64,000 bases of DNA, taken from a virus. The stretch lies in the IMG/VR virus record IMGVR_UViG_3300009008_002419, positions 29,804 through 93,803 of that record. One strand, written 5' to 3'. The translations under genes were made by a program, and so were the position numbers. The notes beneath the pieces are model-generated. The model was not told the origin of the DNA. It saw only the letters and a program-made list of their open reading frames with translations, and made no database searches. Positions 18,799 through 63,143 of this stretch are shown piece after piece. Position 1 is the stretch's first letter, and every line of letters begins with the position of its first letter.

Positions 18799-18802
18799 TG
18801 TT

Positions 18803-19627: not shown

Positions 19628-19971
19628 ACATCAAGTTCTGGTTTTTGTCCCATTATTCGTTCTTCAAGATTAGCTTCATCTTGATCTTCTGGTAATACAG
19701 CAGTTCTTACTTCCTCCAGTACGCGGTAGTTTCCTTCATTTATAACATCATGTAAAAACTTATCTAACTTATTTTTAATATGGCTTCTGGATTCATTAGC
19801 TAATTTTAATCCTCGATAAAGACGGTCAATTAGTTCTAAGTCTTGTGAATCATTGCGCTGTTCAAATTCAATTCTTCTTACAAAGTCTGCTAGTTTAATG
19901 TTTTCAATACATAATCTATCGAGTAAGTGTGAAAATGAATCTACATTTTGTATGTATAGTTTATTTTTCAT
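19624..19971 (-). CDS. Small helical protein (DUF4254-like) in the glycan cluster
   Basis: LLDRLCIENIKL...ANESRSHIKNKLD helical-hairpin pattern. Confidence 0.55.
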   Translation of the reverse strand: MKNKLYIQNVDSFSHLLDRLCIENIKLADFVRRIEFEQRNDSQDLELIDRLYRGLKLANESRSHIKNKLDKFLHDVINEGNYRVLEEVRTAVLPEDQDEANLEERIMGQKPELDV

Positions 19972-19983
19972 AAAGTTTTTCGG

Positions 19984-20835
19984 TTAAATAAATTGTTGAG
20001 CAATATCAATTATTTGTTGTGCAAAATTATCTCGGTTATACTTTTGTACTTTATGGAAACCTTGCTCAGCAATTTGTTCGCGTTCAGCTTCGTGTTCTAA
20101 ATAGTAATTAATTTTATCCTTTGCATCCTGTTTGGAATTAAAAATAACTAGATGCTTGCCATCTTCAAAAATGTCTTGTCGGCCGGTCCAATCTTGAGTT
20201 ATTAGAAAACCTTTGGCTGCTGGGATTTTATACACTCTATCAGAGGCACCATCTGCAGTAACTAGATTTAGATTGATTTTAGATTGACTTACAACCTTTG
20301 AAAAGTTCGTTCCAAAAGCATTACTAAAATGTGTGAAATTTAAGTAGTCTCTGTAATCAGCACGCTGACCATAAATTCCACCAATAAACGATAAGTCATA
20401 TATTTTCTTTAATCCCCAGGGCTTATCAATCAAATGATCAAAACCTTCGACTACGTGATAGCAATGTGGAATGTATCTTTTAATTTTCTGTAAAATATTA
20501 ACTTTATCAATACAAGTAAAAGTTGATACTCTGGCTTTTTGTTCAAATTCTCTGTTCCAGTTACATAATGCATCCATAAACCAAAAACATACAACTGTAT
20601 TTTTTGCCATTTCTTTTATGGCGTCGTTGCTTATACCGTTGCATTTACTCAAAAATATAAGATCTACTTGACGAGAAAGATCAACTAATTCTTGATCTCG
20701 TAAAATATTTCCAATCTGTTTTTCCCGAACTCTGTAATTATATCTTAGAACCTTATGGCCAAGATGTTTAAATCCTCGCGCTTGGCTATTATTTGTTGAA
20801 GTCGTGCTAAATACTGCAACTACTAGTACTTTCAT
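19984..20835 (-). CDS. CgeB-family (GT-B) glycosyltransferase
   Basis: DLSFIG, SKINLN, SDRVYKIPAAKGFLIT, YYLEHEAEREQIAEQG. Confidence 0.88.
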   Translation of the reverse strand: MKVLVVAVFSTTSTNNSQARGFKHLGHKVLRYNYRVREKQIGNILRDQELVDLSRQVDLIFLSKCNGISNDAIKEMAKNTVVCFWFMDALCNWNREFEQKARVSTFTCIDKVNILQKIKRYIPHCYHVVEGFDHLIDKPWGLKKIYDLSFIGGIYGQRADYRDYLNFTHFSNAFGTNFSKVVSQSKINLNLVTADGASDRVYKIPAAKGFLITQDWTGRQDIFEDGKHLVIFNSKQDAKDKINYYLEHEAEREQIAEQGFHKVQKYNRDNFAQQIIDIAQQFI

Positions 20836-21449
20836 TTTTCTGGTTTACCCCTTTGTGGTCCAGTTTGTAGTTTTGTAAAAATACCATCAATCCATATAAT
20901 TTTTCCATTTAAGTGATTAGTTAATTTCTCGATAGCACGAAAATCAGCTGCATGATTTCCGTCCCACAAACCTATTTCTTTGTACTTGGAATGAAAAGCT
21001 GTCCCACAATTAGGAATATCTCCACATGCTAAATGGCTCTCCCAATATAACTGCGGCAAAATAATATGCGGAAATTTTGTTTTCCATACATAAATTGCAT
21101 CCGTATCCTGAATATGAGAGGCAATAATTTCTAACCCTTTCGGACCACAGAATTCATCATCGTCATCCAATGTTATAATCATTCCTTCCTCTACACCCTC
21201 GTACATTTTATTTATGTAGAGGTTGTAGGGAAAATTTCCATTACCTGTATTTGGAACTTCTTTTTCATAAGAGATAATAGTATCAAAAACGGTTAAGAGT
21301 GGTTTAATATATGTTAAATCATTGGGTTCATCACTCCCCACAATAATACGAACATTTTTATAGGTTTGTTTTCGTATGCTTGTAATACAACGTTTAAATG
21401 CTTTAGGGCGCCGCGAGGTTCGTATTAAAATGTTAAATAAAATATTCAA
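20832..21449 (-). CDS. GT2-like glycosyltransferase
   Basis: ILIRTSRRP, SIRKQTYKN, LDDDD, ADF; TTG start. Confidence 0.85.
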   Translation of the reverse strand: MNILFNILIRTSRRPKAFKRCITSIRKQTYKNVRIIVGSDEPNDLTYIKPLLTVFDTIISYEKEVPNTGNGNFPYNLYINKMYEGVEEGMIITLDDDDEFCGPKGLEIIASHIQDTDAIYVWKTKFPHIILPQLYWESHLACGDIPNCGTAFHSKYKEIGLWDGNHAADFRAIEKLTNHLNGKIIWIDGIFTKLQTGPQRGKPEK

Positions 21450-21451
21450 TT

Positions 21452-22150
21452 TTATTTCTTTCGTCGGGATTTAGGTGGTTTTCCATTAAAGGGTTTCGTA
21501 AATTTTTCGTTTTTTGGGGGACCTCCCCATTTTTTAATATAGTAACGTTTATTATTTGTAAAGTTATTATTTAATTTTCTATCTTTTTTAATTGTACAAG
21601 AGTTACGAAAAACAGCAACTTTAAGTAAAGATTGTTCTTTAGCTCCCGGTTTTTCGGCTACAGTGCACCGTCTATCAAAGTCGTTATCTTCGAAATAAGC
21701 AGGAAAAAACTCACTATCAAATGGACCTATATCATAAAATCCTTGTTTAGACACTAAAAAATTTGAAAAACTGGCTTCTCCTAAAATAAAAGGAGCTTTG
21801 GGATTCTGTTTAATTGCCTCGTTAATATCTGAGATTGTGTGCCCTAATACAATATCATCATTTACTAAATATACATAATCCGCCTGAAACTCTCCTTCGC
21901 CCTCTTTAAAAGCTAGCTCCATTATAAAGTTCCAACTATCACTAACTCCTAAGTTTGTTTTTGAATTATGAATGAAACTACGATCCTTAAATTCGGAAGG
22001 AATTAATTTATGTATATTTTGCTTTCCATTATCTACTATTATAATTCTATATAAATCAGACATTGTTTCCACTAAGCCAGCTAAATTTTCTTTTAGAAGA
22101 TCAGCCCTATTAATAGTGGGAATTCCTATAACTATTTTATAATTTTTCAT
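21452..22150 (-). CDS. GT2 glycosyltransferase
   Basis: IIVDNG, NLGVSDSWN, VNDD, IGPFDSEFFPAYFEDND, YYIKKWGG. Probable start ATG at 22150. Confidence 0.88.
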   Translation of the reverse strand: MKNYKIVIGIPTINRADLLKENLAGLVETMSDLYRIIIVDNGKQNIHKLIPSEFKDRSFIHNSKTNLGVSDSWNFIMELAFKEGEGEFQADYVYLVNDDIVLGHTISDINEAIKQNPKAPFILGEASFSNFLVSKQGFYDIGPFDSEFFPAYFEDNDFDRRCTVAEKPGAKEQSLLKVAVFRNSCTIKKDRKLNNNFTNNKRYYIKKWGGPPKNEKFTKPFNGKPPKSRRKK

Positions 22151-22168
22151 GTAAAAGCCGTTTTGAGT

Positions 22169-22206
22169 AAAATCGGGCAGCCCTGCATCCTTCACAGAGC
22201 TGCCCT
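22169..22206 (-). terminator. Rho-independent terminator after the SSB gene
   Basis: GGGCAGCUCUG / CAGGGCUGCCC stem followed by GAUUUU. Confidence 0.7.
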
Positions 22207-22216
22207 AGTTAAAATG

Positions 22217-40777: not shown

Positions 40778-40780
40778 ATA

Positions 40781-48522: not shown

Positions 48523-51500
48523 ATGTTTAATCCGTCTTTAACGTTTGAAATTAAAGCTCTCTGGGATTATACGTCGTCGTTCTATAATCTTATGTACGAC
48601 AGCGATAGAGAGGTAATTGAAGATTATTGGACTGCTCTATTAGAGGGGATCCGAGGTCTTCATTATGACCTGTATCAATATAATTTATTAAAAGCGCTGG
48701 ATTACTCTCGTGGTTATTTAGAGAATGTGTATAAGTACTATGACATTTACTTAGAGGATGATTATGCAGAAGAGCGTGGACGATTAGAAGAAAAAATACT
48801 AAAGGTACACGAGTTTAATGGAGTTCTTTATGCATTAACTTCTAAACGAATTTACAAGAGCACAGATCAAGAAAGATGGGAAGATACTACTCTAAATCTG
48901 TTTGGCCAGACTTTTGTTTGTAAAGATTTAACAGATGATGGTACTACTTTATTTTTATTAACAAGTCTAGGTGTTTATAAAAAAGAAACTGCACAATGGA
49001 CCTCTGTTTATTCTTCAACTGCTTTTGATAAAATTGCAGCTCATGATACATCAATTGCAGCCATTTCAAATACAAATAATAAAGTTTATTTAGGGGATTT
49101 AAACTATCTTACTGAATATACCTTTACTGATTTGTCTACTAAAGAAAATTATACTTATTCGGGCGAAACTCTGTACTCGACTGAATGGGTAAATGACTAC
49201 TTAACGATAGGTACTGATGCAGGTCTTTATGTTTATGACCCAAACATATTACAGGGCGACATAGGAACTTACGGAGAATGGTTAACTATTTCTGGCGAAC
49301 TTGAGCCAGAACATTGTGTTTCGTTAATTGCTGATCCTGTATCAAGTAATAGTTTATATGTTGGAAGTCCTGATGGTTTATACTCGTATACAATTTCTGG
49401 TGAGTGGGATGAAGTCACAACTGCCATAATTGTGTCAGGTCAGGATTCTGTTGATGCACTAGAAGTTTATGAGTCTGGAATTGTGGCTTCAACTATTACA
49501 GGTGTATTCTATGCTGAAGATGCAGGTAGTACATTTACAAACATCTCTTCTACTCTTGATAGTAGTAAGCCTTTAACACTAGAAGTAATCTCAGGAACAG
49601 TATATGCAGGAACTATTGATGGAGTATACAAAACTATACTACCAAATGATAACTGGTCTAAATTTAGTGCTGGCTATTACTACTATGAACTTCCTGGTAA
49701 TGATCTTTATTTAAGTGTTCCCACATTAAGTGGTGAAACTACTGGGCAACTTCTTGTAGAAGGTACAGACTATGAACTATACCAAATGCGCTATATCAAA
49801 TTCTTTGATGAGTTTGAAACAAGCGATCTTGAAATTTTAAATGGAGAAAGATTTTTAAGTACAAGTAATTTAATCTTAGCTCCTACTCTTAAAAATATAT
49901 TCTTCCCTGGATTTGGAGAAACATCTCCAACAACTTTAATTGAAAATGGTGAGTACCCTCCTTATCTGAGTGGAGTAGATGAAGATTTACTAACAAACTA
50001 TGAGTATAAGCAATACTATGCTCAGCATTTGATGAACTGGACACACGCTTTAAGCGCCAAACTTCGTCATCCACCTACAGTGGAAACTTTAACAGATATT
50101 TATGGGTATATTAAAGGATTGCCCTTCACTTATGAAGATAGTTGGTTCGAGTCTACATGGTCTGGAGAAGATTCAACTTTTGCTAAGTTTGTAACTTCAG
50201 GCAGCACAGATTATGTTGTTTATGAAATTCCATATCCACTTGAATACTTTGAATATGAGTATGGTGACTATGTAGATAAGTATGACTTAATTGGTTCAGG
50301 TATTAATATTGTTGATTATGTTAAAGACATTACGCTGATTAGCGGTATGCTTGAAGAGAATGGTGATGAGATTACAGTTCTCACACTTAAAAACTTACTC
50401 TTCTTACAGGAAACTAATAGGCTCTACTTAGCTGGTATTAAAGAAAAAAATAATGATAATATTATTGAGCAATTTACAACCAAAATTGCACCTTTAGGAT
50501 TAACACAATTAGTTGGTAATCGTGAACCGCAAGTTACATTAACTGAAGATCTGTTAATTTATGAGCCAAGTGGTTTATCAATTGAAGTTCCTATTATAGT
50601 TGAAGATGCCGAAGATGATATCCTTACTTATAAATTACGCTTCAACTCACCAACTTATGAGTACTTAACAGAGAGTGGTTTAAGTGTTACTGTTACAGGC
50701 GCACAAACTGTTCTACCTACATATGTGCCGGATCAACGCCCTCCTGTAGATACAAGTTATAGATTTACTGTTGAAGTAGATGATATTTATCATACAGTAG
50801 AAACGGCTGCAAGAAACTTTGTTTCAGGAGATGTTCCTTTTGTACAATGGGGACAGCCTGACTATGGGTTTGATGATGAGTTTGCAATTGCAGACTGTGA
50901 TATTGAGTACTTATACCTTAGTGGTATTAGTGCAAGCGGTATGGAAATCAACTTTAATCAACCGTTTCTAATTGAAGATACAGAACATTACCCAAAAGAT
51001 TTCTGTATCCTAAAAGATGATACTAACCTTTATCATGTTTACGCTCTTAGAAACAAAATTACAAAAGACTCATATCCGCCTTGGTCAAATTTAGTTGGTG
51101 ATGAACCTTATTTTGGTCATTGGACGAGCTATGATTTACGGAACTGGACAAGCCAGGATCCTGTTTTACCTTGTGATGAGGGCGAATCGTGGGAAAGAAC
51201 TTATGTGTGGGCACCTGATACAATTCGCAATCCCTTTAACACTACTGAAGGACATGCACTGTATGGCTTAGGTACCTACATAATGCTTTACACTGGCGTT
51301 GATAACGGTGATCCTGATCCAGGAGATCCTGGCTGGATCAACCAAAAAATGGGGTTAGCATTTAGCGATGATGGATTTACTTGGACACGCTATGCAAATA
51401 ACCCTGTCATTGATCCTACTGACTGGCACTATGATGGTAGCTCTGATAAATGGATGCATTATTTACCAGATGATGACACAAAACCCTGGAATGGAGTATT

Positions 51501-53049
51501 CCGTGACCCATCTATTGTAGGACCAATAGATGTTAATGGTACAAATACTTGGTATGTTGTTAATACTGCTGAAGTTTATATTAATGGGGTTAATACTTAT
51601 CAAGGTTTATCAATAGCGTCAACAACTGATTTTATAACATGGACTGATTTAGGTGAGCCCTTACTATTACGTGATGATTCTCCTGATACAAGTGCTCATT
51701 TACCTGAAAGTGCTGCTCTATTTTATGCAGATGGGGAATGGCATTTATTTTTCGTTGATATTGCTGGCGATGGTTATGCACAGACAAACCACACCACTAG
51801 CGATAGCCTGTTAACAGGGTGGAACTCTCCTTATGATACCGATGGTTTATCTTCGACATACGACAGAGCGTTACAAACTATTGAGTTCTATGAAGATACC
51901 ACATTTGGCAACGAGTTTATTATGGCTGGTAAACGAACTTGTACTGGCGGGCCTGGGCGTGGTTATTTAACATTCTTAGGAGCTGACTTTACTGTAGGCG
52001 ATCCATATACCGTGTATGATAGTTTAAATTATACTGCTAGTTCATCAGCAATGGAAAACTTAATTGCTATAACTGGTAGTGGTTCTATTGATGCAAATCT
52101 GACTTGGACTGTATATGATGTAGATATTCTTGAAGTTGAAGACCCCGAGGCAGTGTATGATCAAACAGTTTCTGGATTAACGCCAAATGGAGTTGGTGAA
52201 TATAAATTAATACCTGATGGCTGTGATTGGGAAGATGCTACTGCAATTCAAATGTCACTAACAGACAAAGACAGTGAAGATGCCAGTGATGTATTATTAG
52301 GTCAAGATGGGTTGTTTGATATGTTTACAGTGACATATAGTGGAGTAACTGACACATTCTTAGGACAAACACGAACAACTTATAGTGGGTATGTAGAATA
52401 CACAATTCATCCTGCAGTAATAATTGAGTTCACAGGTGCCCCCGAAGATGGAACAGATCTTACAATTTCTTATAATGAAACACAACCAACAGCACTACAA
52501 GCATTTAATTATCAGCCAACAATAGGGGATGGTCCTTTAGAGCGTAATGGTATTTCAAGTAATATGACAGGAAATGCTTACATTGCTACACGAGAAAAAC
52601 ATTACACACCTTATTATGATGACCCTACCAGTACATACGGATTAGGCAAAGCTTGGGATCCGGATGATTGTTTAGGTTGGGCAAAATCTAGCACCTTTAC
52701 AATTCAGAAAAACAGGGTCGCTTTGATGGTTGGCGGTGGAAACCATCCCAACACAGAATTCGTAGCACTAGTAGATGCTGATACTGACAAAATTTTATTT
52801 AAAGAAACTGGCGAAGACTCAGACGTAATGAGTGAACGAATTTGGAATACAACACTTTTACGTGGAAGAAATGTTTACTTTGTTATTGCCGATCTAACTC
52901 CTGACACGTGGGGATTCATCTCATGTGATGCAATTCATGAATACACTGAGTCAGACCCTGATAACGATTCGTCTACAGCAGTGGAACCAATGGGCGACGA
53001 TGCACCATTAATTTCAACTTTAACAGACATTACCGTTGACTTAAGCTAA
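48523..53049 (+). CDS. Giant baseplate-associated protein with beta-propeller, GH32/GH43-like glycosidase and carbohydrate-binding-like domains
   Basis: GLYVY/GVYK propeller repeats; HWTSYDLRNW, WAPD, AFSDDGFTW, FRDP, PES; C-terminal SSTFTI...VGGG...WGFISCDAI. Confidence 0.75.
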   Translation: MFNPSLTFEIKALWDYTSSFYNLMYDSDREVIEDYWTALLEGIRGLHYDLYQYNLLKALDYSRGYLENVYKYYDIYLEDDYAEERGRLEEKILKVHEFNGVLYALTSKRIYKSTDQERWEDTTLNLFGQTFVCKDLTDDGTTLFLLTSLGVYKKETAQWTSVYSSTAFDKIAAHDTSIAAISNTNNKVYLGDLNYLTEYTFTDLSTKENYTYSGETLYSTEWVNDYLTIGTDAGLYVYDPNILQGDIGTYGEWLTISGELEPEHCVSLIADPVSSNSLYVGSPDGLYSYTISGEWDEVTTAIIVSGQDSVDALEVYESGIVASTITGVFYAEDAGSTFTNISSTLDSSKPLTLEVISGTVYAGTIDGVYKTILPNDNWSKFSAGYYYYELPGNDLYLSVPTLSGETTGQLLVEGTDYELYQMRYIKFFDEFETSDLEILNGERFLSTSNLILAPTLKNIFFPGFGETSPTTLIENGEYPPYLSGVDEDLLTNYEYKQYYAQHLMNWTHALSAKLRHPPTVETLTDIYGYIKGLPFTYEDSWFESTWSGEDSTFAKFVTSGSTDYVVYEIPYPLEYFEYEYGDYVDKYDLIGSGINIVDYVKDITLISGMLEENGDEITVLTLKNLLFLQETNRLYLAGIKEKNNDNIIEQFTTKIAPLGLTQLVGNREPQVTLTEDLLIYEPSGLSIEVPIIVEDAEDDILTYKLRFNSPTYEYLTESGLSVTVTGAQTVLPTYVPDQRPPVDTSYRFTVEVDDIYHTVETAARNFVSGDVPFVQWGQPDYGFDDEFAIADCDIEYLYLSGISASGMEINFNQPFLIEDTEHYPKDFCILKDDTNLYHVYALRNKITKDSYPPWSNLVGDEPYFGHWTSYDLRNWTSQDPVLPCDEGESWERTYVWAPDTIRNPFNTTEGHALYGLGTYIMLYTGVDNGDPDPGDPGWINQKMGLAFSDDGFTWTRYANNPVIDPTDWHYDGSSDKWMHYLPDDDTKPWNGVFRDPSIVGPIDVNGTNTWYVVNTAEVYINGVNTYQGLSIASTTDFITWTDLGEPLLLRDDSPDTSAHLPESAALFYADGEWHLFFVDIAGDGYAQTNHTTSDSLLTGWNSPYDTDGLSSTYDRALQTIEFYEDTTFGNEFIMAGKRTCTGGPGRGYLTFLGADFTVGDPYTVYDSLNYTASSSAMENLIAITGSGSIDANLTWTVYDVDILEVEDPEAVYDQTVSGLTPNGVGEYKLIPDGCDWEDATAIQMSLTDKDSEDASDVLLGQDGLFDMFTVTYSGVTDTFLGQTRTTYSGYVEYTIHPAVIIEFTGAPEDGTDLTISYNETQPTALQAFNYQPTIGDGPLERNGISSNMTGNAYIATREKHYTPYYDDPTSTYGLGKAWDPDDCLGWAKSSTFTIQKNRVALMVGGGNHPNTEFVALVDADTDKILFKETGEDSDVMSERIWNTTLLRGRNVYFVIADLTPDTWGFISCDAIHEYTESDPDNDSSTAVEPMGDDAPLISTLTDITVDLS

Positions 53050-53064
53050 CAAAAATTTTATATT
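53036..53064 (+). promoter_or_regulatory. Sigma70-type promoter
   Basis: TTGACT-N17-TATATT upstream of 53106; GAGGA RBS. Confidence 0.65.
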
Positions 53065-53105
53065 TAATACAATAGTAACAGTTTATAAATCATGAGGATA
53101 AACAT

Positions 53106-55676
53106 ATGGCAAATATAGATGGCTATGATGTTCTAATAACTGACACGCCAAACGAGGGGCGGGTTAAGTGGAATACAGCTGACCAAATAATCAATAGTGG
53201 ACTAGAAGAGCATGAAGATGCCAGTGATGAAGTTCATGGTTTAGGAGCTGGTGAGGATGTTGTAGGTACCTCTACAGAGCAAGAGCTCACTAATAAAACA
53301 ATTGATATTGAGCAAAATACTTTTGAAAATTGGCCTGATTCGCTTACTACACTAACCTTCTCTACAGACGATGAAACTGTCTCTGCCGCCGGTAGCGTCA
53401 CTATGTCTGGGATGAACGGTATTGAAGTTTTAGGTGACGACTCTGAGGATTCCATCGCTTTTGGGCTGGAAGAAGCTCTAATTATTAATCATAGTGATGG
53501 TAGTCAAACTGTTACCATTAAAACAGACACACTAGCAGCCGGAGATACCCTAACGGTTGGCGGACAGACTTCAATTCTTGATAATCTTAATGTCTATAAT
53601 GCCACAGCGACACTAGAAGTTGGTGTTAGTACATCTGAGTGTCTATCCTTTACAAAAAATGCTCTGGCAGCAACTGACGGTTTGGGTATTACAAGTACTG
53701 ATTCTATCACATTTAATACTAACGATTTAGTCATTGATCCAGCAAGTAGTAGGGTCGGAATAGGAACAGCTTCACCTTCGGTGACATTGGATGTTGCGGG
53801 ACAGGCTAACGTTGGAGGGTCTAGCGCTTATTTAAATATTAATTCCGCCGCTGTAACTTCAGCTGGAACTGCAACAAACTTTATTTTAGACACAATTAAT
53901 GTTTCGGATTCTATGTTATTTAAAGTTGGTGGAACACTACAATTAACTCTAACAAGTACTACTGCAACCTTTGAGCAAGATGTGGTACTTGACGAAAATA
54001 TTCTTTTAAGTACCCAAAATAATCAGCAATTTGCTTACTATGGTCAAGGATCCAGTAATGTAATTGAGTTAGAATTTGAATCAGATGGCACACTTGATAT
54101 CCAAACTGGTACTGGAGGGTCTGCACCAACATCAGCATTAGAGATTAGTGCAACATCGATAACTGCTAATAAAACATTCATTGCTGAGACTCTTGGCGGT
54201 ACACTAGGAAATATTGAAACTTTTTATAATATCTTTGATAGTAGCTGGAGTACTTACAGTGCGGGAGATATTGAGATTGCAACTGGACTAGGAAGCGGTA
54301 CACGAGTATTAACTACTGCTGATTTAGGTGGAAGTGAAAATATTCCTGAAATACAATCTTTAACCTTAACTGGGACGCCCTATCAAATTGTAGTAAATCC
54401 TGACAGTCCTTTTTATCTAGATAGAGAGGATCCTGTTGAAGTCGAATTTAGGCTTCCAGAAGAAGTCCATGTTGAAGATCGCGTAATTATTGGAACTACT
54501 TCAATCACTGGTGGTTGGGTTGGAGATCAGTATCACTTTGAACAAGAGATTCACGGTGACTCTTACATGCGAAGCATCTATCTTGGAGAACCTTATTCTA
54601 GTGCTAATACTAATAACTTAAATGCTAATGTACACTTAGACTTTTATACTGATCCTACCGTAAGTGACACTAATTGTGGTGCTAAATTTGCCTTTAATGA
54701 TCCGAATAATGATGAATATGAAAAAGAATTTACTCTGGACATGCGTGGCGACGATGCGGACACTGTTAAAAACGGATTTACAATTCGAAAGAACGGCGGT
54801 ACTGATAATACAAGCATCTTTGGTCACTTCTATTGGAATAACGGTGGTCGCTTAAGTGTTAATAAACAGTGGCCGCAGTATACGCTTGATATTGCTGGCG
54901 ATGGTTATGTACAGACAAACTTAACAATTGGCGATACATTAACTACAGTAAATGAATTAGTTCAAGGACGAAGTATAATCAATCGATTAGATGTTCCTCC
55001 TAACACAACAAATCCTAATGGATATGAATACTTTAGCTTTTCACACGGCAGTCATACTGGATTATTTGATGAGGGTTCTTTAGAGCTGTCATTAATTCAT
55101 GAAGATGGGTGGTTTTTGCCCCACTCTGCCTTTGGACCCTCTGGTGGTTTCCAAACTGTCGGATCAGTTCAGGCAATAACTGGGTATGTTTCTGGCGAGT
55201 ATGGTCTTCGTGGAATTGGTGCTACGTATACTGCGCAATCAAATGTAACAGCAGAGCATGGAAATCATTCTGTTGTAACAGCATTAGGTAGCACCGGCTC
55301 AATTACAATGGGCAACGATATTTACTTCTCAAACGGCTACCATTATGTGTTGTTAACAATTAATGATTTACGAAATGCAGACTATACAATTCCAGTAGAA
55401 GCTAACTTTAAATATTTATCAAGCCTGAAAATTGACTGTTACTATGATGTCATGAATAGCTTCTATAATGGTCCTGCTGCAAATGTTGTTTGGTTCTTTA
55501 CAGATGATTCTGGTTCAAATCCCCATGACTATAACACACTTTCATGGGCAGACAAAGAAAACGCTGACCGCATCTTAGTGATGATTGGTCATCCCGAAAC
55601 AGAATATATTGAGAATGCACAGGTAAGAATTAGTTGGACAGCTGAATGGCGCTCAGATTATGGTAGTGGCGCTTAA
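53106..55676 (+). CDS. Tail fibre/spike-like protein
   Basis: Thr/Ser/Gly-rich; RVGIGTASPSVTLDVAG and RLSVNKQWPQYTLDIAG fibre repeats. Confidence 0.7.
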   Translation: MANIDGYDVLITDTPNEGRVKWNTADQIINSGLEEHEDASDEVHGLGAGEDVVGTSTEQELTNKTIDIEQNTFENWPDSLTTLTFSTDDETVSAAGSVTMSGMNGIEVLGDDSEDSIAFGLEEALIINHSDGSQTVTIKTDTLAAGDTLTVGGQTSILDNLNVYNATATLEVGVSTSECLSFTKNALAATDGLGITSTDSITFNTNDLVIDPASSRVGIGTASPSVTLDVAGQANVGGSSAYLNINSAAVTSAGTATNFILDTINVSDSMLFKVGGTLQLTLTSTTATFEQDVVLDENILLSTQNNQQFAYYGQGSSNVIELEFESDGTLDIQTGTGGSAPTSALEISATSITANKTFIAETLGGTLGNIETFYNIFDSSWSTYSAGDIEIATGLGSGTRVLTTADLGGSENIPEIQSLTLTGTPYQIVVNPDSPFYLDREDPVEVEFRLPEEVHVEDRVIIGTTSITGGWVGDQYHFEQEIHGDSYMRSIYLGEPYSSANTNNLNANVHLDFYTDPTVSDTNCGAKFAFNDPNNDEYEKEFTLDMRGDDADTVKNGFTIRKNGGTDNTSIFGHFYWNNGGRLSVNKQWPQYTLDIAGDGYVQTNLTIGDTLTTVNELVQGRSIINRLDVPPNTTNPNGYEYFSFSHGSHTGLFDEGSLELSLIHEDGWFLPHSAFGPSGGFQTVGSVQAITGYVSGEYGLRGIGATYTAQSNVTAEHGNHSVVTALGSTGSITMGNDIYFSNGYHYVLLTINDLRNADYTIPVEANFKYLSSLKIDCYYDVMNSFYNGPAANVVWFFTDDSGSNPHDYNTLSWADKENADRILVMIGHPETEYIENAQVRISWTAEWRSDYGSGA

Positions 55677-55696
55677 TAAATACTCTAGGAGATTAA

Positions 55697-58600
55697 ATGA
55701 AGAAAATTAAGGTACCGGCAAAGACAGTACAAAATTTTGAAACCGTCTTTGATAATTTACATTCGGCTTGGGCGTTTAATTTAACGCGCAGAGAAGATCG
55801 TACCTATAAAAATTATGGCCTGCTTTTCTTAAATGAAAATGATACTCCAACATCTAATGATTGGAAGGTTGAAGTATTAACACCTTACACTCAAACTAAA
55901 TTTAGAACGCGTGTTGGTACAAGCGGTAAAGCTTTGGGTTTACTGTCTTCTGGAGAAATTGTTGGAATCTCAGCTGATAAAGATGTCAATTTATCAAGTT
56001 ATCAAGCAAATAAATTTTATCTTGTTTATGTGATTTGGGATAGTGTTGGGACTGAACCTATTCAAACAGCAGATGGATTTATGTATAATCCTGATGGCTC
56101 GTCTAATACACAAAACACTGTATACTTAGATCGTACTACAATAACAGTAATTGAAAAGTCCACTTTATCAAGCGCTCTTTCAACAGCTAACGAATACATT
56201 AATGATTACACTGATCGTGTGCCGCTAGCTGTACTAAAAACAGAAGAGAGTTCTGTTGAGTGGGATATGGCAACAGACTGGGGTAATAGTACTTACACTC
56301 CTGCCAATGGTGTTATTGATCTTCGTGGATTAGCACAGCTTCAGCTAAATGAAAATTTACTTGATGATTCTGCTGTTGTTATGAAAGACAGAGACTCCAC
56401 AGCATCAAACGGTGGAGCAATTGAGGGTGATGTTGATGTTACAGGAACGTTAACAACCAACGATTCATTAGTTGTCAGTAATCTTACTACTTCCGAAGTT
56501 CTTACGCTTTCTGAAGAAGGTATTTCTCATGACAGTGTAACACTTAACCAACCACTTTCATTCACTTCTGTTGATGGTCCGATTCAGTTTCATTCGAAAG
56601 GAACCGAAAACGGGATTACATTAGATGGTGATAATGTAGCCATTAATGGTGAGCCGAGCACTTCTAGTTCAATGGTTCTTCAGGTATATGGTGGTGGATT
56701 ATATGTGCACGAAGATATGTTGTGGGTTAACGACTTTGCTAAGTTTGATACTGATGAGCAAAAAGCTGTAATAGGCAGTGAGACTGTTCATGATGACTAT
56801 AAACTTTATCTTGATGGTACTACAGGAATTAGTGGTGATACCACAATCTCTGGTGAACTCACACTAGCTGACACTCTTATACTCCCAGTTGATGATTACA
56901 TTACATTTGGTGGTTGGACAACTGGACCTTCAATTGCAGGAAGTACTGCCGGAACCTCTCTTAGTTTTTATGTGCAGGGTGGAATCGCTGAAATGCATAT
57001 CATTGAGTCAGGTGTAAATATCCCATATAACAGTAACCTTATGCTGGATGGTAAAGTCAGAGATGGCGATAGTGAAATTCTACTCCAAACCAAATCTAAT
57101 GCTCAAGCTGAGCTCACTGAAATTGTAATTGGAGATTCCTTAAACTCTACACACACTAACTTTGAAGGAACTTCAGTTGGTGTAAACACTCGTGCTCACT
57201 TAATGAGTGGAATGAATTTTGCAGTCTATGGAGATTCTCGTTTTGACGATATCTACATGACTCAGCGAAAAGCAATTAAGTGGGAACAAACAACTAATAA
57301 TAAAGCTGCCCTGGCGTATCCACGTGATACTGGGGGAGATTTCTTACTAAGCTTAAACTTAGACTACGATGCTAATGGAATTTCAAGTGTAGCAAATTCT
57401 GATAAAGAAGCACTTGCAATTAGTTTAGCAAATATTACGCATTCAGGTTCAGCAATTGATTTCTATGTAACTGATCCTGCAAATGGTTCCGATTTCTTTG
57501 CTAGTCGTGATAAACGAGCATCAATTACAAATGATCGAATGACCTTAACAGGTGATTTGTACATCGGTGACTACTACATTAAACCTAGCACCGGGGAGTC
57601 TCGCTTAGGAACAGTTACGTTCGAAGAGATTATTCAGACAGATGGCGGAGCTTCATTTGAGAGTATAACTACAACCACTCTTGATGTATCCCGCACACTA
57701 ACATTGCCAGGAACAGGTTCATACATTAGTGAATCTGGTTATATGAACTTCCTGTATCCTGACCATTACTTGCCTTCAGGTACTGTAAATATTGGGTTTG
57801 AGGGCAGTGACCCAGCACTTGTTCTATGGCAAAAAGAGTATGATGCTCCAACAAGCATTGAGTTTAAAAACTTTAATAGACTTACTGATTGGGTTATTCG
57901 TAAAGAAGGCGATGTAGATAATCGTTTAACAGTACAACATCGTGTTGATGGTGAATTAAAACGAGCTGTTACAATGTTCGACAGTAATGGGATTGCTAAT
58001 CTTTCAACTGGACAACTAAATTGTACTACACTCTCGTTAGCAAACATTGAAGTAACTAGTAGTGGTCTGGAATTAGACGATCTTTATACTGGACGACTAA
58101 TTAGTACAGCAGGTTCTTATGAATTAAACGCAAGTGGTATTTATGGAGACATACTATCCACTACTAACGGAATGTTCTCTGCGAATCGGGCTGGAACAAT
58201 AAGCCTTGGTACCACAGGATTAAATGCAGCTGTAAATGTTAACGGTGCCTTAAGTATTGTAGGTACACTTGAGCTCGATTCAGCAAACGCAGCAACTATT
58301 AAGGGTGTTACTAATGAAGAATTCTTAGTAGGCGTAGGATCCTTGGGAGTAAGTGGTGAGGGTGTTCCAGTAATGCTCGATTATAACACACCTACTGTCC
58401 CAAATAACTTACGCATCTATGACATGGTTCCTGTGCCCGGCATTCCTAATCAAATGAGCCCTTTCTATACTACAATTAAATGGGGCTTTGAAAGTTTAAC
58501 TTCAGCAGTCTATGGAGATGCTGCTAATAACCAAATTTATACTTCATTAGCAGGGCTGGATTTAACTGGCGATGAAATCTTACTTTCGGGAGCATTAACA

Positions 58601-60019
58601 AATCGTTATTACACAAGTTCAAACACTAGCTTTGGACAATATCTAATCGAGTCAGTAGCAGTTAGCGGTTTATATGCTGTCTTAACATTAGACAGTAGCT
58701 GGACAGCTGATAAAATCGGAGACGGTCATATCATGATTGTTGAAGATGCTAACTACATGGAATTTGAAGTCACTGAGTGGGCACCAAATGTAAGTGACCC
58801 AGACGGTGAGGACATACTATTAAGTGTGTCGAATAAAAAAGTAGGCTCAGACTCTAATGTTACCTCTTTACAGACATGGCCCTACCACAAGTATAAAGTC
58901 CGTGCACGAAGTCAAAAAGCTTCTGCAAACTCTTCATGGGCATTAATGCCTGCAGGAACATATGACCCTGATCATGTAGGCGGCGGTCAAGCAGAAGTTT
59001 CTTATGGTACACCGTTCGAAGCCTTACTGCCAAACCTAACAAACACAGATGCAACTCTAACAGTCGCTTCAACAGACTATGGATTTGTGGCTGATGCAGG
59101 AAGTAGTTGGAAAGGAAGTGATGACCCAGAGCAAAATTGTCATCAGTATCACTTTGCATACACAACTTCTGTTAGCGGCCTAAACTTTGATGATATTTCA
59201 TCTACACACTCACATGTTTATCAAACCTCTCCTTACTTAAATGTGTCTACATCCGAATCCAATACCTATACGGTCGGTGTTCGACCAATGCAAAATGGAA
59301 TGCCCGTAGGTGATGGAATTACTAGTACTGTTACTTCTGGAGCTGGTGGAATGCCGCCGACGGCACAAGTAATTGCAGAACGTGATTTTGACATCATTGC
59401 TGCTGAGGGCGATGTAACTACAGTAAGTGGAGTTGTAAGTGATATTGCCTTCACACATGAAGAGCACGATCCCATTTATAACTTCTTTAAAGACCAGGTT
59501 ATTTCAGACGGTACTTATAATTACCTAGTTAACAAGGATAATCCTGATCTTGATGGAGACGCGACTGGAGCAACACGTGATATTACTACATCCGATAGTG
59601 CTGATGGAGGTACTGGGCTAGTCGCTCTCGATGAAGTGACAATTGGGCAAAGTAAACGTGCTAGAAGAATTATACGAAAAGCTCTAACAAAAGATGTAAT
59701 GATTACATCTGTTAGTGTGTCTGTGAACTCTCTGCATTCAGACTCTGATTATAGTATTGATCTAGCAGCAAACCCAGTTGTAATTCGAGTGTACCAGGAA
59801 GGTAATGAAAATGCTGCTGATAGTATAACAATATCATCAGAGTTTACAGACACAGTACAAACGATGAATGTACGAATTATCTCGTCTGTAGGAGCATCTC
59901 GAGTACTTATTGTTGATGCTTATGATCCAAACGATAATAATAATGTTACAAGCATTAGTGGCTCTATTAGTGTTCATGGGGAAGCAATCACTGTCCCAGG
60001 AGACGTCCCGTCTAACTAA
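55697..60019 (+). CDS. Long tail fibre-like protein with C-terminal FN3/Ig-like domains
   Basis: VIDLR collar motif; beta-fibre repeats; YKVRARS...SSW and YTVGVRP FN3-like strands. Confidence 0.65.
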   Translation: MKKIKVPAKTVQNFETVFDNLHSAWAFNLTRREDRTYKNYGLLFLNENDTPTSNDWKVEVLTPYTQTKFRTRVGTSGKALGLLSSGEIVGISADKDVNLSSYQANKFYLVYVIWDSVGTEPIQTADGFMYNPDGSSNTQNTVYLDRTTITVIEKSTLSSALSTANEYINDYTDRVPLAVLKTEESSVEWDMATDWGNSTYTPANGVIDLRGLAQLQLNENLLDDSAVVMKDRDSTASNGGAIEGDVDVTGTLTTNDSLVVSNLTTSEVLTLSEEGISHDSVTLNQPLSFTSVDGPIQFHSKGTENGITLDGDNVAINGEPSTSSSMVLQVYGGGLYVHEDMLWVNDFAKFDTDEQKAVIGSETVHDDYKLYLDGTTGISGDTTISGELTLADTLILPVDDYITFGGWTTGPSIAGSTAGTSLSFYVQGGIAEMHIIESGVNIPYNSNLMLDGKVRDGDSEILLQTKSNAQAELTEIVIGDSLNSTHTNFEGTSVGVNTRAHLMSGMNFAVYGDSRFDDIYMTQRKAIKWEQTTNNKAALAYPRDTGGDFLLSLNLDYDANGISSVANSDKEALAISLANITHSGSAIDFYVTDPANGSDFFASRDKRASITNDRMTLTGDLYIGDYYIKPSTGESRLGTVTFEEIIQTDGGASFESITTTTLDVSRTLTLPGTGSYISESGYMNFLYPDHYLPSGTVNIGFEGSDPALVLWQKEYDAPTSIEFKNFNRLTDWVIRKEGDVDNRLTVQHRVDGELKRAVTMFDSNGIANLSTGQLNCTTLSLANIEVTSSGLELDDLYTGRLISTAGSYELNASGIYGDILSTTNGMFSANRAGTISLGTTGLNAAVNVNGALSIVGTLELDSANAATIKGVTNEEFLVGVGSLGVSGEGVPVMLDYNTPTVPNNLRIYDMVPVPGIPNQMSPFYTTIKWGFESLTSAVYGDAANNQIYTSLAGLDLTGDEILLSGALTNRYYTSSNTSFGQYLIESVAVSGLYAVLTLDSSWTADKIGDGHIMIVEDANYMEFEVTEWAPNVSDPDGEDILLSVSNKKVGSDSNVTSLQTWPYHKYKVRARSQKASANSSWALMPAGTYDPDHVGGGQAEVSYGTPFEALLPNLTNTDATLTVASTDYGFVADAGSSWKGSDDPEQNCHQYHFAYTTSVSGLNFDDISSTHSHVYQTSPYLNVSTSESNTYTVGVRPMQNGMPVGDGITSTVTSGAGGMPPTAQVIAERDFDIIAAEGDVTTVSGVVSDIAFTHEEHDPIYNFFKDQVISDGTYNYLVNKDNPDLDGDATGATRDITTSDSADGGTGLVALDEVTIGQSKRARRIIRKALTKDVMITSVSVSVNSLHSDSDYSIDLAANPVVIRVYQEGNENAADSITISSEFTDTVQTMNVRIISSVGASRVLIVDAYDPNDNNNVTSISGSISVHGEAITVPGDVPSN

Positions 60020-60046
60020 TGGGGGGATTTACAAAAGGCAAACTAA

Positions 60047-61630
60047 ATGGCTGACTATGAAGGACGTATAGAAACTGCGACGGGAGTGCCAATTCATGGT
60101 GCTCTCGTCAAAGCATTTGAGGATACAACCGATACACTGTTATCAACTGATGTAACAGATGAATTGGGTAAGTATGCCCTTACTAATCTAGAGCCCAGTG
60201 AAGGTGGAGTAGAAACTTTCAAAGTAAACATTAAGTTTTTTGGGAGTGACACATGGGTATTTAATCCCTATATAGCTCAGTATGAGCCTTACTTTGATTT
60301 TTCAATAGACATACCTATTGATATGACAACGGTTCTAGGGGATTCAATTGATTATCAAGTATCTGAAGTTAATCTGGACGGCGATGCGGGGTTTCATAAT
60401 CCTTCGTTTGCTCAAAACACTCTTACTAACTTTGATGTTATTGATGGTAATGTACGATATGTAAGTTTTTATTATCGTGAGCACGATACAGGTGGTTATG
60501 ATACTGATTGGGACTCCACAAACTCATGGTATACTTTAGGAACTGTGAATGTCGAGTTAGGTGAAGATGATGATGATACTATTATACAGGAAACCTTTGC
60601 TAACATTCCAGTAGATCAGTGGGAGAATAAATACTATGAGTTTCGTGTAAAATGTACAAACTCTCAAGGAAATCTTGCTACATTTAATTCGCCCATTGAT
60701 GGAACAGTAGTAGGAACAGTTATTGTAGAAAGTGGAATTGGTTTCTTTACATCAACATCTCCTACTGCCTTTACTAATGTAACTGCAGATGGTTATTCTC
60801 TAGACTTTTACAATGATTCAAGTACTTTGATTTGTTCACGACCTATTGGAAAAGTTGATGATGATACTATTGCTTTTGATGCAGGAAATGATTATATTTC
60901 AGAAGCGACCTTTGAAACAATTACTAGTATAACTAAAGATGACGCACATAATTATATTTATGATGTGGGTGCAACACTCTCTGGCCAAGCTTTTAATGGA
61001 ATAGCAGACTTTTCTGAAATAGCTATGGCTACAAATCTTCAAATGATTATCGAAAAAGATTGGGTTCATACTCCTGAAAGTGATGATGAAATTCCAGGAA
61101 CAACTGTTCGCTTACGTTGGCATAATATGTACGATAAAGATGTTGTTGATCTTACAAATTGGCCTCACATGGATGGGCAATTAAGAGATTTAACTGCTTC
61201 ACTATTACGGCGAATTGAAACATATAAAGTGTTTATGTATATTTCAGACTCAACCCCAGGTGATGATGATTCCCCAACTAATCATGATTGGACTGGTATT
61301 AATTCAGAATTTACCGAAGATTTTCCTGCTCCATTTTATTTGTCTACAGGAGAAGATGAAGGTGGAAATGGAGATGGTACAGATTCAATGGGTCAGTGGT
61401 ATCTGATTGATGAATTACGCGCTTCTCGTATAAAAGGGGTTGAAGGAACAGCCACTGAATACATTACATCAAATATCAATGTTCCTGGTGGAACCTATGT
61501 TGCATTTTGGGTCGGCTTCTGTTCAGATCTTACAACTTCTCAAGCTGATGGCGCGCCCTTAGGCGAGGGCCGTCCTGGGGATAGACCTGGAGGAGGTTGG
61601 GATCCTTATGAACAAGGAAATGATCCGTAA
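60047..61630 (+). CDS. Acidic virion protein with N-terminal transthyretin/carboxypeptidase-regulatory-like domain
   Basis: GRIETATGVPIHGALV...TDELGKYALTNL; YEFRVKC. Confidence 0.55.
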   Translation: MADYEGRIETATGVPIHGALVKAFEDTTDTLLSTDVTDELGKYALTNLEPSEGGVETFKVNIKFFGSDTWVFNPYIAQYEPYFDFSIDIPIDMTTVLGDSIDYQVSEVNLDGDAGFHNPSFAQNTLTNFDVIDGNVRYVSFYYREHDTGGYDTDWDSTNSWYTLGTVNVELGEDDDDTIIQETFANIPVDQWENKYYEFRVKCTNSQGNLATFNSPIDGTVVGTVIVESGIGFFTSTSPTAFTNVTADGYSLDFYNDSSTLICSRPIGKVDDDTIAFDAGNDYISEATFETITSITKDDAHNYIYDVGATLSGQAFNGIADFSEIAMATNLQMIIEKDWVHTPESDDEIPGTTVRLRWHNMYDKDVVDLTNWPHMDGQLRDLTASLLRRIETYKVFMYISDSTPGDDDSPTNHDWTGINSEFTEDFPAPFYLSTGEDEGGNGDGTDSMGQWYLIDELRASRIKGVEGTATEYITSNINVPGGTYVAFWVGFCSDLTTSQADGAPLGEGRPGDRPGGGWDPYEQGNDP

Positions 61631-61929
61631 TGGCTACATATCGAGCATCCTATGTTTATAACTATCTTGGCAAAGATTATGTTGGGTATAAATGGTTTGA
61701 CACTTATGCCGAAGCAAGATTTTTTCTTAAAAAAACTGCTTTAACCCCAGCAGGGAATCCTTCACGTAAACAACGTATTGATCAAATTGGAGATATTACT
61801 CCTCCCGAACCAACCTTTGATTGGTTACCTTTCCAATGGTTAGTAGATACTTATCAACAAGCATTGTATGAAGAAGAAGCATTATCATACTTTATGGCAA
61901 TAAACCACTATGAAATAGAAGAGTGCTAA
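61630..61929 (+). CDS. Hypothetical protein
   Basis: 99-aa ORF abutting both neighbours. Confidence 0.6.
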   Translation: MATYRASYVYNYLGKDYVGYKWFDTYAEARFFLKKTALTPAGNPSRKQRIDQIGDITPPEPTFDWLPFQWLVDTYQQALYEEEALSYFMAINHYEIEEC

Positions 61930-62256
61930 ATGGCTAATACATACAAAAACGCATTTGCAGATTTAACTACAACAAATGTTACCACCGTCTACACGACACC
62001 CGCTGCTACTACAGCAATTATACAAGCTATTAATTTAGCAAATGTAGCAGCAAATGCAGTTGATATATCAGTATTAATTTATGATGATAGTTCAGCAACT
62101 GATTTTACATTGTTAAATGAAGGTGAAGTTCCAGGTGATAGTACATTACAAGCTGTAGATAGACCTATTGTTTTAGAAACAGGAGACATACTAAAATTAC
62201 AAGCTTCAGTTGCAGACCGTATTGAAGTGATTGTATCTATTTTAGAGGTTACTTAA
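61930..62256 (+). CDS. Small beta-sandwich virion protein
   Basis: TTVYTTPAATTAII...LAN...IVLETGDIL pattern common in phage structural modules. Confidence 0.7.
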   Translation: MANTYKNAFADLTTTNVTTVYTTPAATTAIIQAINLANVAANAVDISVLIYDDSSATDFTLLNEGEVPGDSTLQAVDRPIVLETGDILKLQASVADRIEVIVSILEVT

Positions 62257-63143
62257 TGACAAATGTTGGATACTTTCCTCTTATAAAAGTAGCTAATGAC
62301 CGAGATTTGCAAGACCAAGCAGAGCAGCAATTTTCTGATATTATTTGGTCTGAGTCAATGGTGTTTGAATCTTTTGAGGAAACTGAAAATTTAACTTTTA
62401 ACTATGGTCAATATTTTCGTGTCCGTCCTGGTATGGGCATGGAAGTATTGATGACCCAATTTATGTTAAATGAAGGTGGTGAGGGTTTAAGCTTAACTGT
62501 TGAAACTACAACAGCCTATGAAAATTTAGTGCCAACACCACGAAGCATCCTAGATCCACAAGCATTCCCAGCAAACGATGTTTATGATAATCCCACCATT
62601 TCAGGAACATATGATGGAGACTATCCCGAAGACATTAAAATAATGATTTCAGAAGATGGTGGTGGAGACTATTCCATAGCTACGTATGAAGTTTATTTAA
62701 TGCCAGACATTACTACACCCGTCATGTCCGGCCTTTCTGTAGACACTTGGGAAACGCTAACTTCAGTTTCAGGCTTAGAAAATATTCAAGTGATGTGGGA
62801 ATCTGATCCAGGCACAGACTTTGGTGCTGGTGATGCCTGGCTAGTTGGATGTAGAACAGGCAATATTAGAAGTTTTTTAACTAATTTTGATTACACTGCA
62901 GATGCTAATTCTTATATAACTTTAGATGTTAGTGTTGACGGTGGGTCAACGTACATTGAAGATATTTTAAATCAACAACAATACATTGAAGAAGATGCTG
63001 GGTATGGTTGGTTATCAGACCAATCGGGAAATGATCTTGATTGGAAAGTTACCATTTCAGGAAACTCCTCTGCTGAATATGTACTATTAGAACACTTATT
63101 TATATTTACTGGCGACTATGACGCAATTACATACTGGATTTAA
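62256..63143 (+). CDS. Acidic virion structural protein
   Basis: 295 aa, beta-rich, SVDGGSTY Asp-box. Confidence 0.6.
   Translation: MTNVGYFPLIKVANDRDLQDQAEQQFSDIIWSESMVFESFEETENLTFNYGQYFRVRPGMGMEVLMTQFMLNEGGEGLSLTVETTTAYENLVPTPRSILDPQAFPANDVYDNPTISGTYDGDYPEDIKIMISEDGGGDYSIATYEVYLMPDITTPVMSGLSVDTWETLTSVSGLENIQVMWESDPGTDFGAGDAWLVGCRTGNIRSFLTNFDYTADANSYITLDVSVDGGSTYIEDILNQQQYIEEDAGYGWLSDQSGNDLDWKVTISGNSSAEYVLLEHLFIFTGDYDAITYWI

Follow-up and report, generated by a model that had tools for sequence, protein, structure and literature searches.

Recurrent Thr-x-Ser-Gly in a large baseplate protein of an uncultured marine phage: a candidate strand-end turn signature

Why does one four-residue pattern, Thr-x-Ser-Gly (T-x-S-G, written T.SG below), recur in a single phage baseplate protein, and is its serine an attachment site for sugars? 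The question is raised by a stretch of viral DNA of 64,000 nucleotides, referred to here as the window, which encodes both a 1508-aa baseplate wedge protein at the position of gp7 and an island of glycosyltransferase (GT) genes (Table 1). The first-pass annotation proposed that T.SG is a sequon used by the phage's own GT cluster. The half of this idea that concerns motif statistics holds, but the tests in this analysis do not link the motif to the glycan island. On balance, T.SG is probably a local variant of a conserved turn signature at strand ends, which occurs in outer baseplate proteins within a lineage of ~200-kb marine phages.

Table 1. Features of the window, with motif counts for whole proteins and residue numbers (aa) for single sites
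Feature	Position	Strand	Remarks
Glycan island, 10 kb	12407..22195	-	between RecU and DUF669
gp6-like baseplate wedge protein, split 427 aa + 651 aa	45277..48515	+	T.SG 0 and 1; Baseplate_J, phrog_6
1508-aa baseplate wedge protein, gp7 position	48523..53049	+	T.SG 10, SG 21, GS 7; after the gp6-like genes
N-terminal helical segment, aa 1-90	48523..48792	+	helix 26-59 in the model; common to the ~470-aa gp7-like family
Predicted BNR/sortilin-type beta-propeller, aa ~95-385	48805..49677	+	T.SG at 211, 255, 290; SG at 305, 318, 357
TYSG, aa 211	49153..49164	+	T.SG in 2/4 close homologues, SG in 3/4
TISG, aa 255	49285..49296	+	private to the 1508-aa protein
TISG, aa 290	49390..49401	+	sole T.SG kept in 4/4 close homologues
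Conserved wedge domain, aa 386-625	49678..50397	+	TLSG401, TWSG545; SG at 483, 559, 592, 607; pLDDT about 90
TLSG, aa 401	49723..49734	+	family-wide motif PTLSG
TWSG, aa 545	50155..50166	+	hairpin 540-547 / 551-558
TESG, aa 716	50668..50679	+	private to the 1508-aa protein
Predicted GH32-type glycosidase domain, aa 810-1170	50950..52032	+	PF00251
C-terminal TGSG1184, TVSG1215, TYSG1271, TYSG1286	52072..52389	+	3/4 private
Distal tail/fibre proteins: 856, 1440, 527, 99, 108, 295 and collagen-like 283+ aa	53106..63998	+	T.SG 1, 4, 1, 0, 0, 2, 0

Recounting the 1508-aa protein reproduced the hand counts of T.SG, SG and GS on which the proposal was built, as well as the listed variants (TYSG three times, TISG twice, and TLSG, TWSG, TESG, TGSG and TVSG once each). 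Shuffled versions of the protein are expected to hold 0.86 +/- 0.91 T.SG, and 0 of 20000 shuffles reached ten; for SG, 8.2 are expected and 21 are observed (P 1e-4). T.SG is the best among all patterns of the forms abc, a.bc and ab.c in this protein (P 2.8e-8, runner-up 2.6e-4), and the excess survives the post-hoc choice of the motif because none of 500 max-pattern shuffles reached its score. It was also claimed that the glycosidase domain is free of the motif. This is correct, as there is no SG at all over aa 806-1185, but the gap is not significant because simple arithmetic on composition predicts only about two there.

Several trivial causes were considered and rejected. Self-BLAST of the protein finds no internal repeats, and locally S/T/G-rich segments are ruled out by GS, T.GS and TG, none of which is enriched. 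A motif at the level of the DNA is ruled out by codons that differ among the sites; serine at the ten T.SG sites is written with both TCN and AGY codons, in agreement with the earlier remark on varied codons, and the pattern thus belongs to the amino-acid level. The motif is non-random and specific in residue order.

The gene lies directly 3' of the gp6-like (Baseplate_J) gene, which is the order of gp6 and gp7 in T4. The gp6-like protein is encoded by a single fused gene (1036-1058 aa) in the relatives G001, phage B and G004. Foldseek lists the T4 gp7 chains 5iv5_BJ and 5hx2_A for the 1508-aa protein, only at TM scores of 0.10-0.13, and a Klebsiella KP1 baseplate chain, also at low TM, and a tblastn search against cultured phages gave no match. 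The family consensus of the gp7-like N-terminal segment begins MFN...W..LG..Y. By fold and sequence similarity the residues that follow (aa ~95-385) are assigned to the BNR/Asp-box class of beta-propellers. Phmmer matched this region over 3-10 stretches to proteins with PF15902, PF02012 or PF14870 (Sortilin-Vps10, BNR, PSII_BNR), and VIA gave Z values of 11-12 to propeller blades across aa 205-375; there is no Pfam BNR match on the 1508-aa protein itself. The canonical Asp-box of such blades is S-x-D-x-G-x-T-W. One near-canonical Asp-box-like sequence is present, AEDAGSTF at aa 331-338, with the remaining blades either degenerate or reading TISGEW. Further along, aa 810-1170 are assigned to a GH32 (clan GH-J) type domain because they match PF00251, the profile of the GH32 N-terminal propeller, above its curated cut-off (34.3 bits, cut-off 22.1, E 2.4e-8). 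For the wedge domain, a PDB sequence profile search returned FN3 domains only.

It had been expected that the sites would map to exposed turns. In the confident parts of the predicted structure (pLDDT 74-94) SG stands after one strand and before the next, at aa 292, 403, 547, 559 and 592; the model of aa 1150-1508, with the C-terminal sites, is unusable (pLDDT 38). TISGEW (aa 290-295) lies in a strand-turn-strand hairpin of the model, and every SG of the wedge domain is at a strand end or a turn. The SG columns of this domain are conserved over 35-40 distant homologues.

SG and T.SG behave differently among homologues. In the close set, which consists of the 1508-aa protein and three close homologues (P0002-P0004), SG counts are 21, 20, 23 and 23 with 11 invariant columns. 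The corresponding T.SG counts are 10, 3, 5 and 2 with one column common to all four, and 5 of the 10 T.SG sites are private to the 1508-aa protein. The non-invariant SG of this protein number 10 as opposed to 8.2 by chance, so that SG beyond the invariant turns is about as frequent as chance predicts. Among 31 distant gp7-like proteins SG is enriched 2.9-fold and T.SG 9.6-fold, and the excess sits in conserved columns (reference aa 213, 257, 292, 403, 483, 559, 592 and 607); the 14 singleton SG columns in that alignment are, by estimate, roughly the chance number. Several SG positions persist down to an identity of about 30%. An acceptor residue should be conserved no worse than its neighbours, but at the conserved SG columns the retention of Gly equals or slightly exceeds that of Ser, with Ser giving way to D, E, K, T, I or P. 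The Thr at -2 is poorly conserved.

The T.SG excess in the large baseplate protein is real and belongs to a lineage-wide SG excess of outer tail proteins. In 14 related ~200-kb phages, SG is enriched 1.4- to 2.4-fold in the products of the gp6-like gene and of the genes after it, and the excess is shared among several outer proteins that are not homologous to one another and in which the flanks of the motif are unrelated. In the loci of ten further relatives the outer tail proteins hold 419 SG as opposed to 229 expected (1.83-fold), and NG (0.92), DG (1.04), TG (1.16) and GS (0.89) are not enriched. Four tail modules gave NG values of 0.74-1.24 and DG values of 0.87-1.14. In relatives, the 10-kb region upstream of the gp6-like gene shows no excess of SG (x1.02) and has NG at x0.37, and in the gp7-like family NG is at x0.60. 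T4 also lacks the excess, with SG at 1.08 in outer proteins and 1.06 in a wider structural set. For T.SG itself, the outer tail modules of four phages show x3.0-4.9 versus x1.5-2.4 elsewhere. Of the 74 T.SG sites of four phages, 51 have one of I, L, Y, V, F, W and M as the middle residue, which fits an alternating beta-strand. Conserved sites such as PTLSG are common to G001 and phage B. A related-locus search with alignment A1 (the context of P0002-P0004) gave no hit among viral contigs or metagenome contigs, and locus searches with P0015 and P0005 yielded no loci.

The claim that the motif recurs in the neighbouring virion proteins is accurate as far as the presence of the listed tetrapeptides is concerned, but the occurrences are weak singly (P 0.58 for the 856-aa, 0.29 for the 527-aa, 0.04 for the 1440-aa and 0.014 for the 295-aa protein). 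The comparison of structural with non-structural genes is divided in the same way. The 1508-aa protein beats its shuffles, but the pooled neighbours, with 9 T.SG versus 3.38 expected (x2.7), are no richer than the window's non-structural genes on the minus strand, with 6 versus 2.10 (x2.9). There is a generic T.SG background of about x1.5-2.4, seen in T4 structural proteins (x1.7), in cellular BNR proteins (x2.0) and in the rest of these phage genomes. The major capsid protein (308 aa) and the sheath (562 aa) have no T.SG.

The island genes comprise a GT9-like gene, DegT, RmlD-like and RmlC/FdtA-like genes, a C-methyltransferase, three GT2, Glyco_trans_1_2 and a second methyltransferase, which amounts to about seven candidate GTs besides sugar-nucleotide enzymes. 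The GT9-like protein has 283 aa, only three Cys (11, 176 and 224) and a weak Glyco_transf_9 match of 22.4 bits. It was considered as a bacterial autotransporter heptosyltransferase (BAHT), and this identity was ruled out by the absence of a four-Cys iron finger, a length too short for an N-terminal barrel plus GT-B core, and the lack of a TibC Pfam match. In G001 and phage B the island site is occupied by one ~540-aa GT1-like gene only. The G001 proteome (phmmer, E<1) gave no homologue of the island GTs and only weak RmlC/RmlD-like matches, and in the phage B contigs (E<0.01) only the flanking DUF669 gene was matched. The island GTs of this phage and of G001 are not orthologous, and a GT2 chain connects both through G004. 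Each of the relatives in which GT families were sought has GTs of some kind, in differing islands, and in G004 and G013 GT1 matches lie beside or within a few kb of fibre genes. A GT-free relative was not found among those searched, and the co-variation of motif and GTs is therefore without a negative control. Enrichment does not follow GT2, as G013 and G005 without GT2 stand at x5 and G007 with GT2 at x1.4-1.8.

What, then, maintains the motif? The counts, the conservation pattern, the strand-end position in the model and the SG-specific excess across the lineage are established. According to the turn reading, which we regard as probable, the signature would be [T/L/I]-hydrophobic-Ser-Gly placed where beta-strands end in tight turns. 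Gly would serve the turn and Ser would act as a small polar cap, with Thr and Ser probably pointing outward and the middle residue inward, so that the constraint would be conformational and not one of modification. About half of the SG dipeptides would then be inherited, conserved turn positions, and the ten T.SG would be made up of conserved turns plus five private occurrences; it may be this private excess that caught the attention of the first-pass annotation. The reading is supported because SG is stable among close homologues and T.SG varies, because Ser is no better conserved than Gly, because capsid and sheath are free of T.SG, and because G001 and phage B share sites although phmmer matched no homologue of this phage's island GTs at E<1 in G001 or at E<0.01 in the phage B contigs. 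It is weakened because pure turn propensity should raise NG and DG too and SG alone is enriched, and because the T4 outer proteins have no excess and the excess spans non-homologous proteins. The five private T.SG, above a background of about 1-2, also count against turns as the sole cause.

As a rival, it has been considered that the Ser of hydrophobic-Ser-Gly, often with Thr at -2, in exposed hairpin turns is an acceptor for cytoplasmic O-glycosylation by phage GTs, which would work as TibC/Aah do on beta-helical adhesins. Such a sequon would account for the dependence on residue order and on Ser (SG enriched; GS, TG, NG and DG not), for the restriction of the excess to the gp6-like gene onward with the upstream region and T4 (x1.06-1.08) at expectation, for its recurrence in 14 of 14 relatives examined and for the sites at strand-turn junctions, and it would have enzymes at hand in this phage's island and in the GTs of the relatives, including those close to fibres. 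We nevertheless consider it rather unlikely, given the poor conservation of Thr, the retention of Gly, several conserved sites in the wedge domain and not in fibres, the motif-free capsid and sheath, island GTs that differ among phages sharing sites, an enrichment independent of GT2 content, the missing iron finger and N-terminal barrel of the GT9-like protein, and the fact that the motif resembles none of the listed bacterial O-glycosylation sequons. A full-text search for phage tail-fibre O-glycoproteomics found nothing. In its original form, as a sequon for this phage's own GT cluster, the idea is unsupported but not refuted. In a wider form, hydrophobic-Ser-Gly would be an acceptor code of the whole lineage, with glycan islands moving and varying like O-antigen loci and placing a different sugar coat on the same sites; this too seems unlikely to us. 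Chance combined with hand selection, where a tetrapeptide was chosen after sight and the neighbours are general background, agrees with the pooled neighbours, the generic background and the few T.SG of the close homologues, half of the ten sites being private. It fails on the rank of T.SG among all patterns, which no shuffle reached, and on an SG excess that recurs independently in every relative. It is very improbable as a general account, since neither the 1508-aa protein nor the SG excess across the lineage can be explained in this way, and it stands only for single neighbouring proteins. Chemical stability was the remaining candidate, in which long-lived virions exchange deamidation-prone Asn-Gly and isomerisation-prone Asp-Gly at turns for Ser-Gly. 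The low NG of the gp7-like family and of the upstream region agrees with it, but NG and DG are near expectation in the very proteins that are rich in SG, and the strongly NG-depleted upstream region has no SG excess, so that this avoidance was rejected and is scarcely credible.

If the motif is a turn signature only, it can serve to recognise the family of gp6/gp7-like wedge proteins in an uncultured lineage of marine phages, and it is a warning on hand-picked motifs. If the Ser is glycosylated, the tails of phages other than mycobacteriophages would have a sugar coat whose acceptor code is written in the protein sequence, and this would bear on how hosts are recognised, how stable the particles are in seawater and why large marine phages have variable glycan islands. 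The excess is SG-specific and absent from T4 and from inner tail genes, and the question is thus directly testable on one recombinant domain.

Among known systems, the Asp-box (BNR) hairpins of sialidase, sortilin and Ycf48-type propellers also show a short polar-x-polar-Gly motif that recurs at a strand-turn-strand hairpin, and TISGEW holds a similar hairpin in the blade preceding AEDAGSTF. However, T.SG is shorter, has Ser-Gly in place of Asp-x-Gly, and most of its sites are outside the propeller; cellular BNR proteins prefer S.DG (x6.4) and T.NG (x3.8) to T.SG (x2.0). The heptosyltransferases TibC and Aah, acting on TibA and AIDA-I, are cytoplasmic GTs that modify many Ser at loops of a beta-rich surface protein, and the hallmarks of BAHT proteins are a four-Cys iron finger, a thumb made of a beta-hairpin, and an N-terminal beta-barrel on a GT-B core (PMC4358343). 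This phage likewise has a weak GT9-family match, but its GT9-like protein is without the BAHT hallmarks, and the phage proteins are only candidate targets of glycosylation. In mycobacteriophages, virion glycans are located at the C-termini of capsid and tail-tube subunits (Freeman et al. 2023, via PMC12619734). As far as that account describes them, the likeness lies in GTs that the phages encode and in virion proteins being the proposed targets, and the difference in the capsid and sheath, which here lack the motif, the candidate sites being internal turns of baseplate and fibre proteins. A parallel in gene order is T4 gp6/gp7, where a Baseplate_J-type gp6 gene is likewise followed by a large wedge protein, with gp7 chains listed by Foldseek at low TM. 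T4 differs in showing no excess (SG 3 vs 2.5 in gp6 and 6 vs 3.4 in gp7, T.SG 0 and 1), and the 1508-aa protein differs from gp7 in what it adds, a predicted propeller and a GH32-type domain.

The 1508-aa protein, a large baseplate wedge protein in the gp7 position, contains exactly the 21 Ser-Gly (SG) dipeptides, 7 GS and 10 T-x-S-G motifs counted by hand in the first-pass annotation, and all listed variants were found. Composition shuffling gives expected counts of 8.2 for SG (P 1e-4) and 0.86 for T-x-S-G, and 0 of 20000 shuffles reached ten. To correct for hand selection, all abc, a.bc and ab.c patterns in the protein were scored. T-x-S-G scored best (2.8e-8; runner-up 2.6e-4), no pattern in 500 shuffled copies matched it, and the window's other large proteins gave nothing comparable. 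Self-BLAST detected no internal repeat, and both TCN and AGY serine codons occur at the ten sites, bearing out the codon variation described earlier. The T-x-S-G count is right and non-random. The glycosidase domain, said to be spared, does lack SG (aa 806-1185), but only about two are expected there, so the gap means little.

Recurrence of the motif in neighbouring virion proteins had also been claimed. Enrichment in these proteins is weak when each is tested singly. When the tail module is pooled and the 1508-aa protein left out, 9 T-x-S-G are observed versus 3.38 expected (x2.7), whereas the non-structural minus-strand genes have 6 versus 2.10 (x2.9), and the recurrence is thus not above the window's background. 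The head-side arm has 4 versus 3.06 expected, and the motif is absent from both the major capsid protein (308 aa) and the sheath (562 aa). Within the window, therefore, the 1508-aa protein alone stands out.

A search of 1.84 billion representatives found a family of ~470-aa proteins that share this protein's N-terminus. The propeller region of the 1508-aa protein aligns with propeller blades at Z 11-12. Foldseek matches include weak ones to T4 gp7 and to a baseplate chain from a Klebsiella phage. The upstream gene is gp6-like, with matches to Baseplate_J and phrog_6. It is split into abutting ORFs of 427 and 651 aa, a split also seen in several relatives; G001, phage B and G004 have a single 1036-1058-aa gene. 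In two relatives of ~210 kb, G007 and G013, the gp6-like gene is interrupted by 6-7 in-frame TGA codons but by no other stop codon. Translating TGA as Trp gives intact ORFs of 1018 and 1035 aa, and both phages apparently read their late genes, at least, with a code-4-like reassignment.

Three close homologues (59-74% identity) have 20, 23 and 23 SG, and 11 SG columns are invariant among the four sequences; the ten others in the 1508-aa protein are about the chance number. T-x-S-G is less conserved, with 3, 5 and 2 copies in the homologues, one column kept in all four sequences and five of the ten sites private to the 1508-aa protein. Among 31 distant family members SG is at x2.9, T-x-S-G at x9.6 and GS at x0.88. 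The excess is carried by columns 213, 257, 292, 403, 483, 559, 592 and 607 (reference aa numbering), all of them conserved, and singleton SG columns occur in roughly chance number by our estimate. Consensus motifs of the gp7-like family include IPTLSG, ITISG, LxSG and ISG.

The window makes up the right-hand two thirds of a 93.8-kb contig from an uncultured phage (CheckV completeness 31%). The syntenic relatives were G001 (204 kb, complete), phage B (two contigs, 99.9% identical in their overlap), G004 and twelve records reached via the gp6-like protein. T-x-S-G observed/expected counts in four tail modules were 19/4.24, 15/3.70, 13/4.30 and 20/4.07, and the rest of each genome gave x1.5-2.4. 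From the gp6-like gene onward, ten further relatives have 419 SG versus 229 expected (x1.83), whereas NG (0.92), DG (1.04), TG (1.16) and GS (0.89) are flat and SG is at x1.02 in the 10 kb upstream. The SG excess is thus real and found throughout the lineage; it is restricted to the outer tail proteins and holds only for Ser then Gly. The inner baseplate and tail genes in those upstream 10 kb (L034, L037, L040, L043, L046, L047, L049, L050, L051, L053) are strongly depleted of NG (43 versus 114.9, x0.37) and also low in DG (x0.65), with SG as expected.

In the best-supported reading, which we somewhat favour, T-x-S-G marks conserved turns at strand ends, and part of the excess is private to the 1508-aa protein; that private part is what caught attention in the first-pass annotation. 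In confident model regions, SG is predicted to follow one strand and precede the next. The middle residue is hydrophobic at 51 of 74 sites in four phages, consistent with an alternating strand in which Thr and Ser point outward. Bare turn propensity, however, does not predict the Ser-then-Gly specificity. Glycosylation at the motif's Ser residues, originally proposed to be carried out by the phage's own glycosyltransferases (GTs), is a less probable reading. GT1 and epimerase matches were found in all five near-complete relatives searched, and no GT-free relative was available among them as a control. Motif enrichment did not correspond to GT2 presence across relatives, and at conserved SG columns Gly is retained no worse than Ser. 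A heptapeptide, E/D-W-x-T-I-S-G, is found in three otherwise unrelated proteins.

Features and their coordinates (window positions unless another sequence is named)
Feature	Sequence	Position	Strand	Remarks
Ribonucleotide reductase large subunit	window	7904-11281	-	interrupted by intein with HNH endonuclease domain
Glycan island	window	12407-22195 (11940-22645 in two-site comparison)		between RecU and DUF669
914-aa protein	window	25424-28168	-	AEP-TOTE type primase domain
gp6-like wedge gene	window	45277-48515		two ORFs
1508-aa protein	window	48523-53049	+	
Propeller region	1508-aa protein	aa ~95-385		Sortilin-Vps10, BNR, Ycf48-type matches, several stretches
Conserved gp7-like family domain	1508-aa protein	aa 386-625		modelled, pLDDT about 90
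GH32 domain	1508-aa protein	aa 810-1170		passed GH32 N-terminal profile
TISG290	1508-aa model	strands 285-290, 295-299		before and after
TLSG401	1508-aa model	strands 401-404, 410-413		
TWSG545	1508-aa model	strands 540-547, 551-558		
SG559, SG592	1508-aa model			similar strand ends
E/D-W-x-T-I-S-G	window	49276-49296		propeller of 1508-aa protein
E/D-W-x-T-I-S-G	window	63042-63065		295-aa protein
E/D-W-x-T-I-S-G	G001	181911-184973		three repeats, 85-aa spacing; 1020-aa protein with 7 T-x-S-G
Islands	G001	152403-155383, 197910-204214 + 351-3433		
Island	G004	40453-44218		
GT1-domain proteins	G004 (L029)	1083-4948		about 600-690 aa, directly after fibre genes, same strand
GT1 matches	G013	63586-68343		at and just past end of 10 kb fetched downstream of gp6-like gene
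gp6-like gene	G007	L040:10001-13057		in-frame TGA
gp6-like gene	G013	L049:10001-13048		in-frame TGA

Islands in the syntenic relatives occupy two alternative sites, the RecU/DUF669 gap or beside the head genes, and their GT sets are largely different. G004 also has its island at RecU/DUF669, sharing one GT2 and a methyltransferase with the window. At this site a lone GT1-like gene of ~540 aa is present in both G001 and phage B. G001 carries a different island elsewhere (at least 7 GT-type genes), with no homologue of the window-island GTs at phmmer E<1 and only weak RmlC/RmlD-like matches. The window's GT9-like protein was considered as a TibC/Aah-type protein heptosyltransferase and rejected, as the hallmarks are absent. 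No T-x-S-G-like sequon is among the bacterial O-glycosylation sequons given in one recent review. In T4 structural proteins T-x-S-G is at x1.7 and SG at x1.06.
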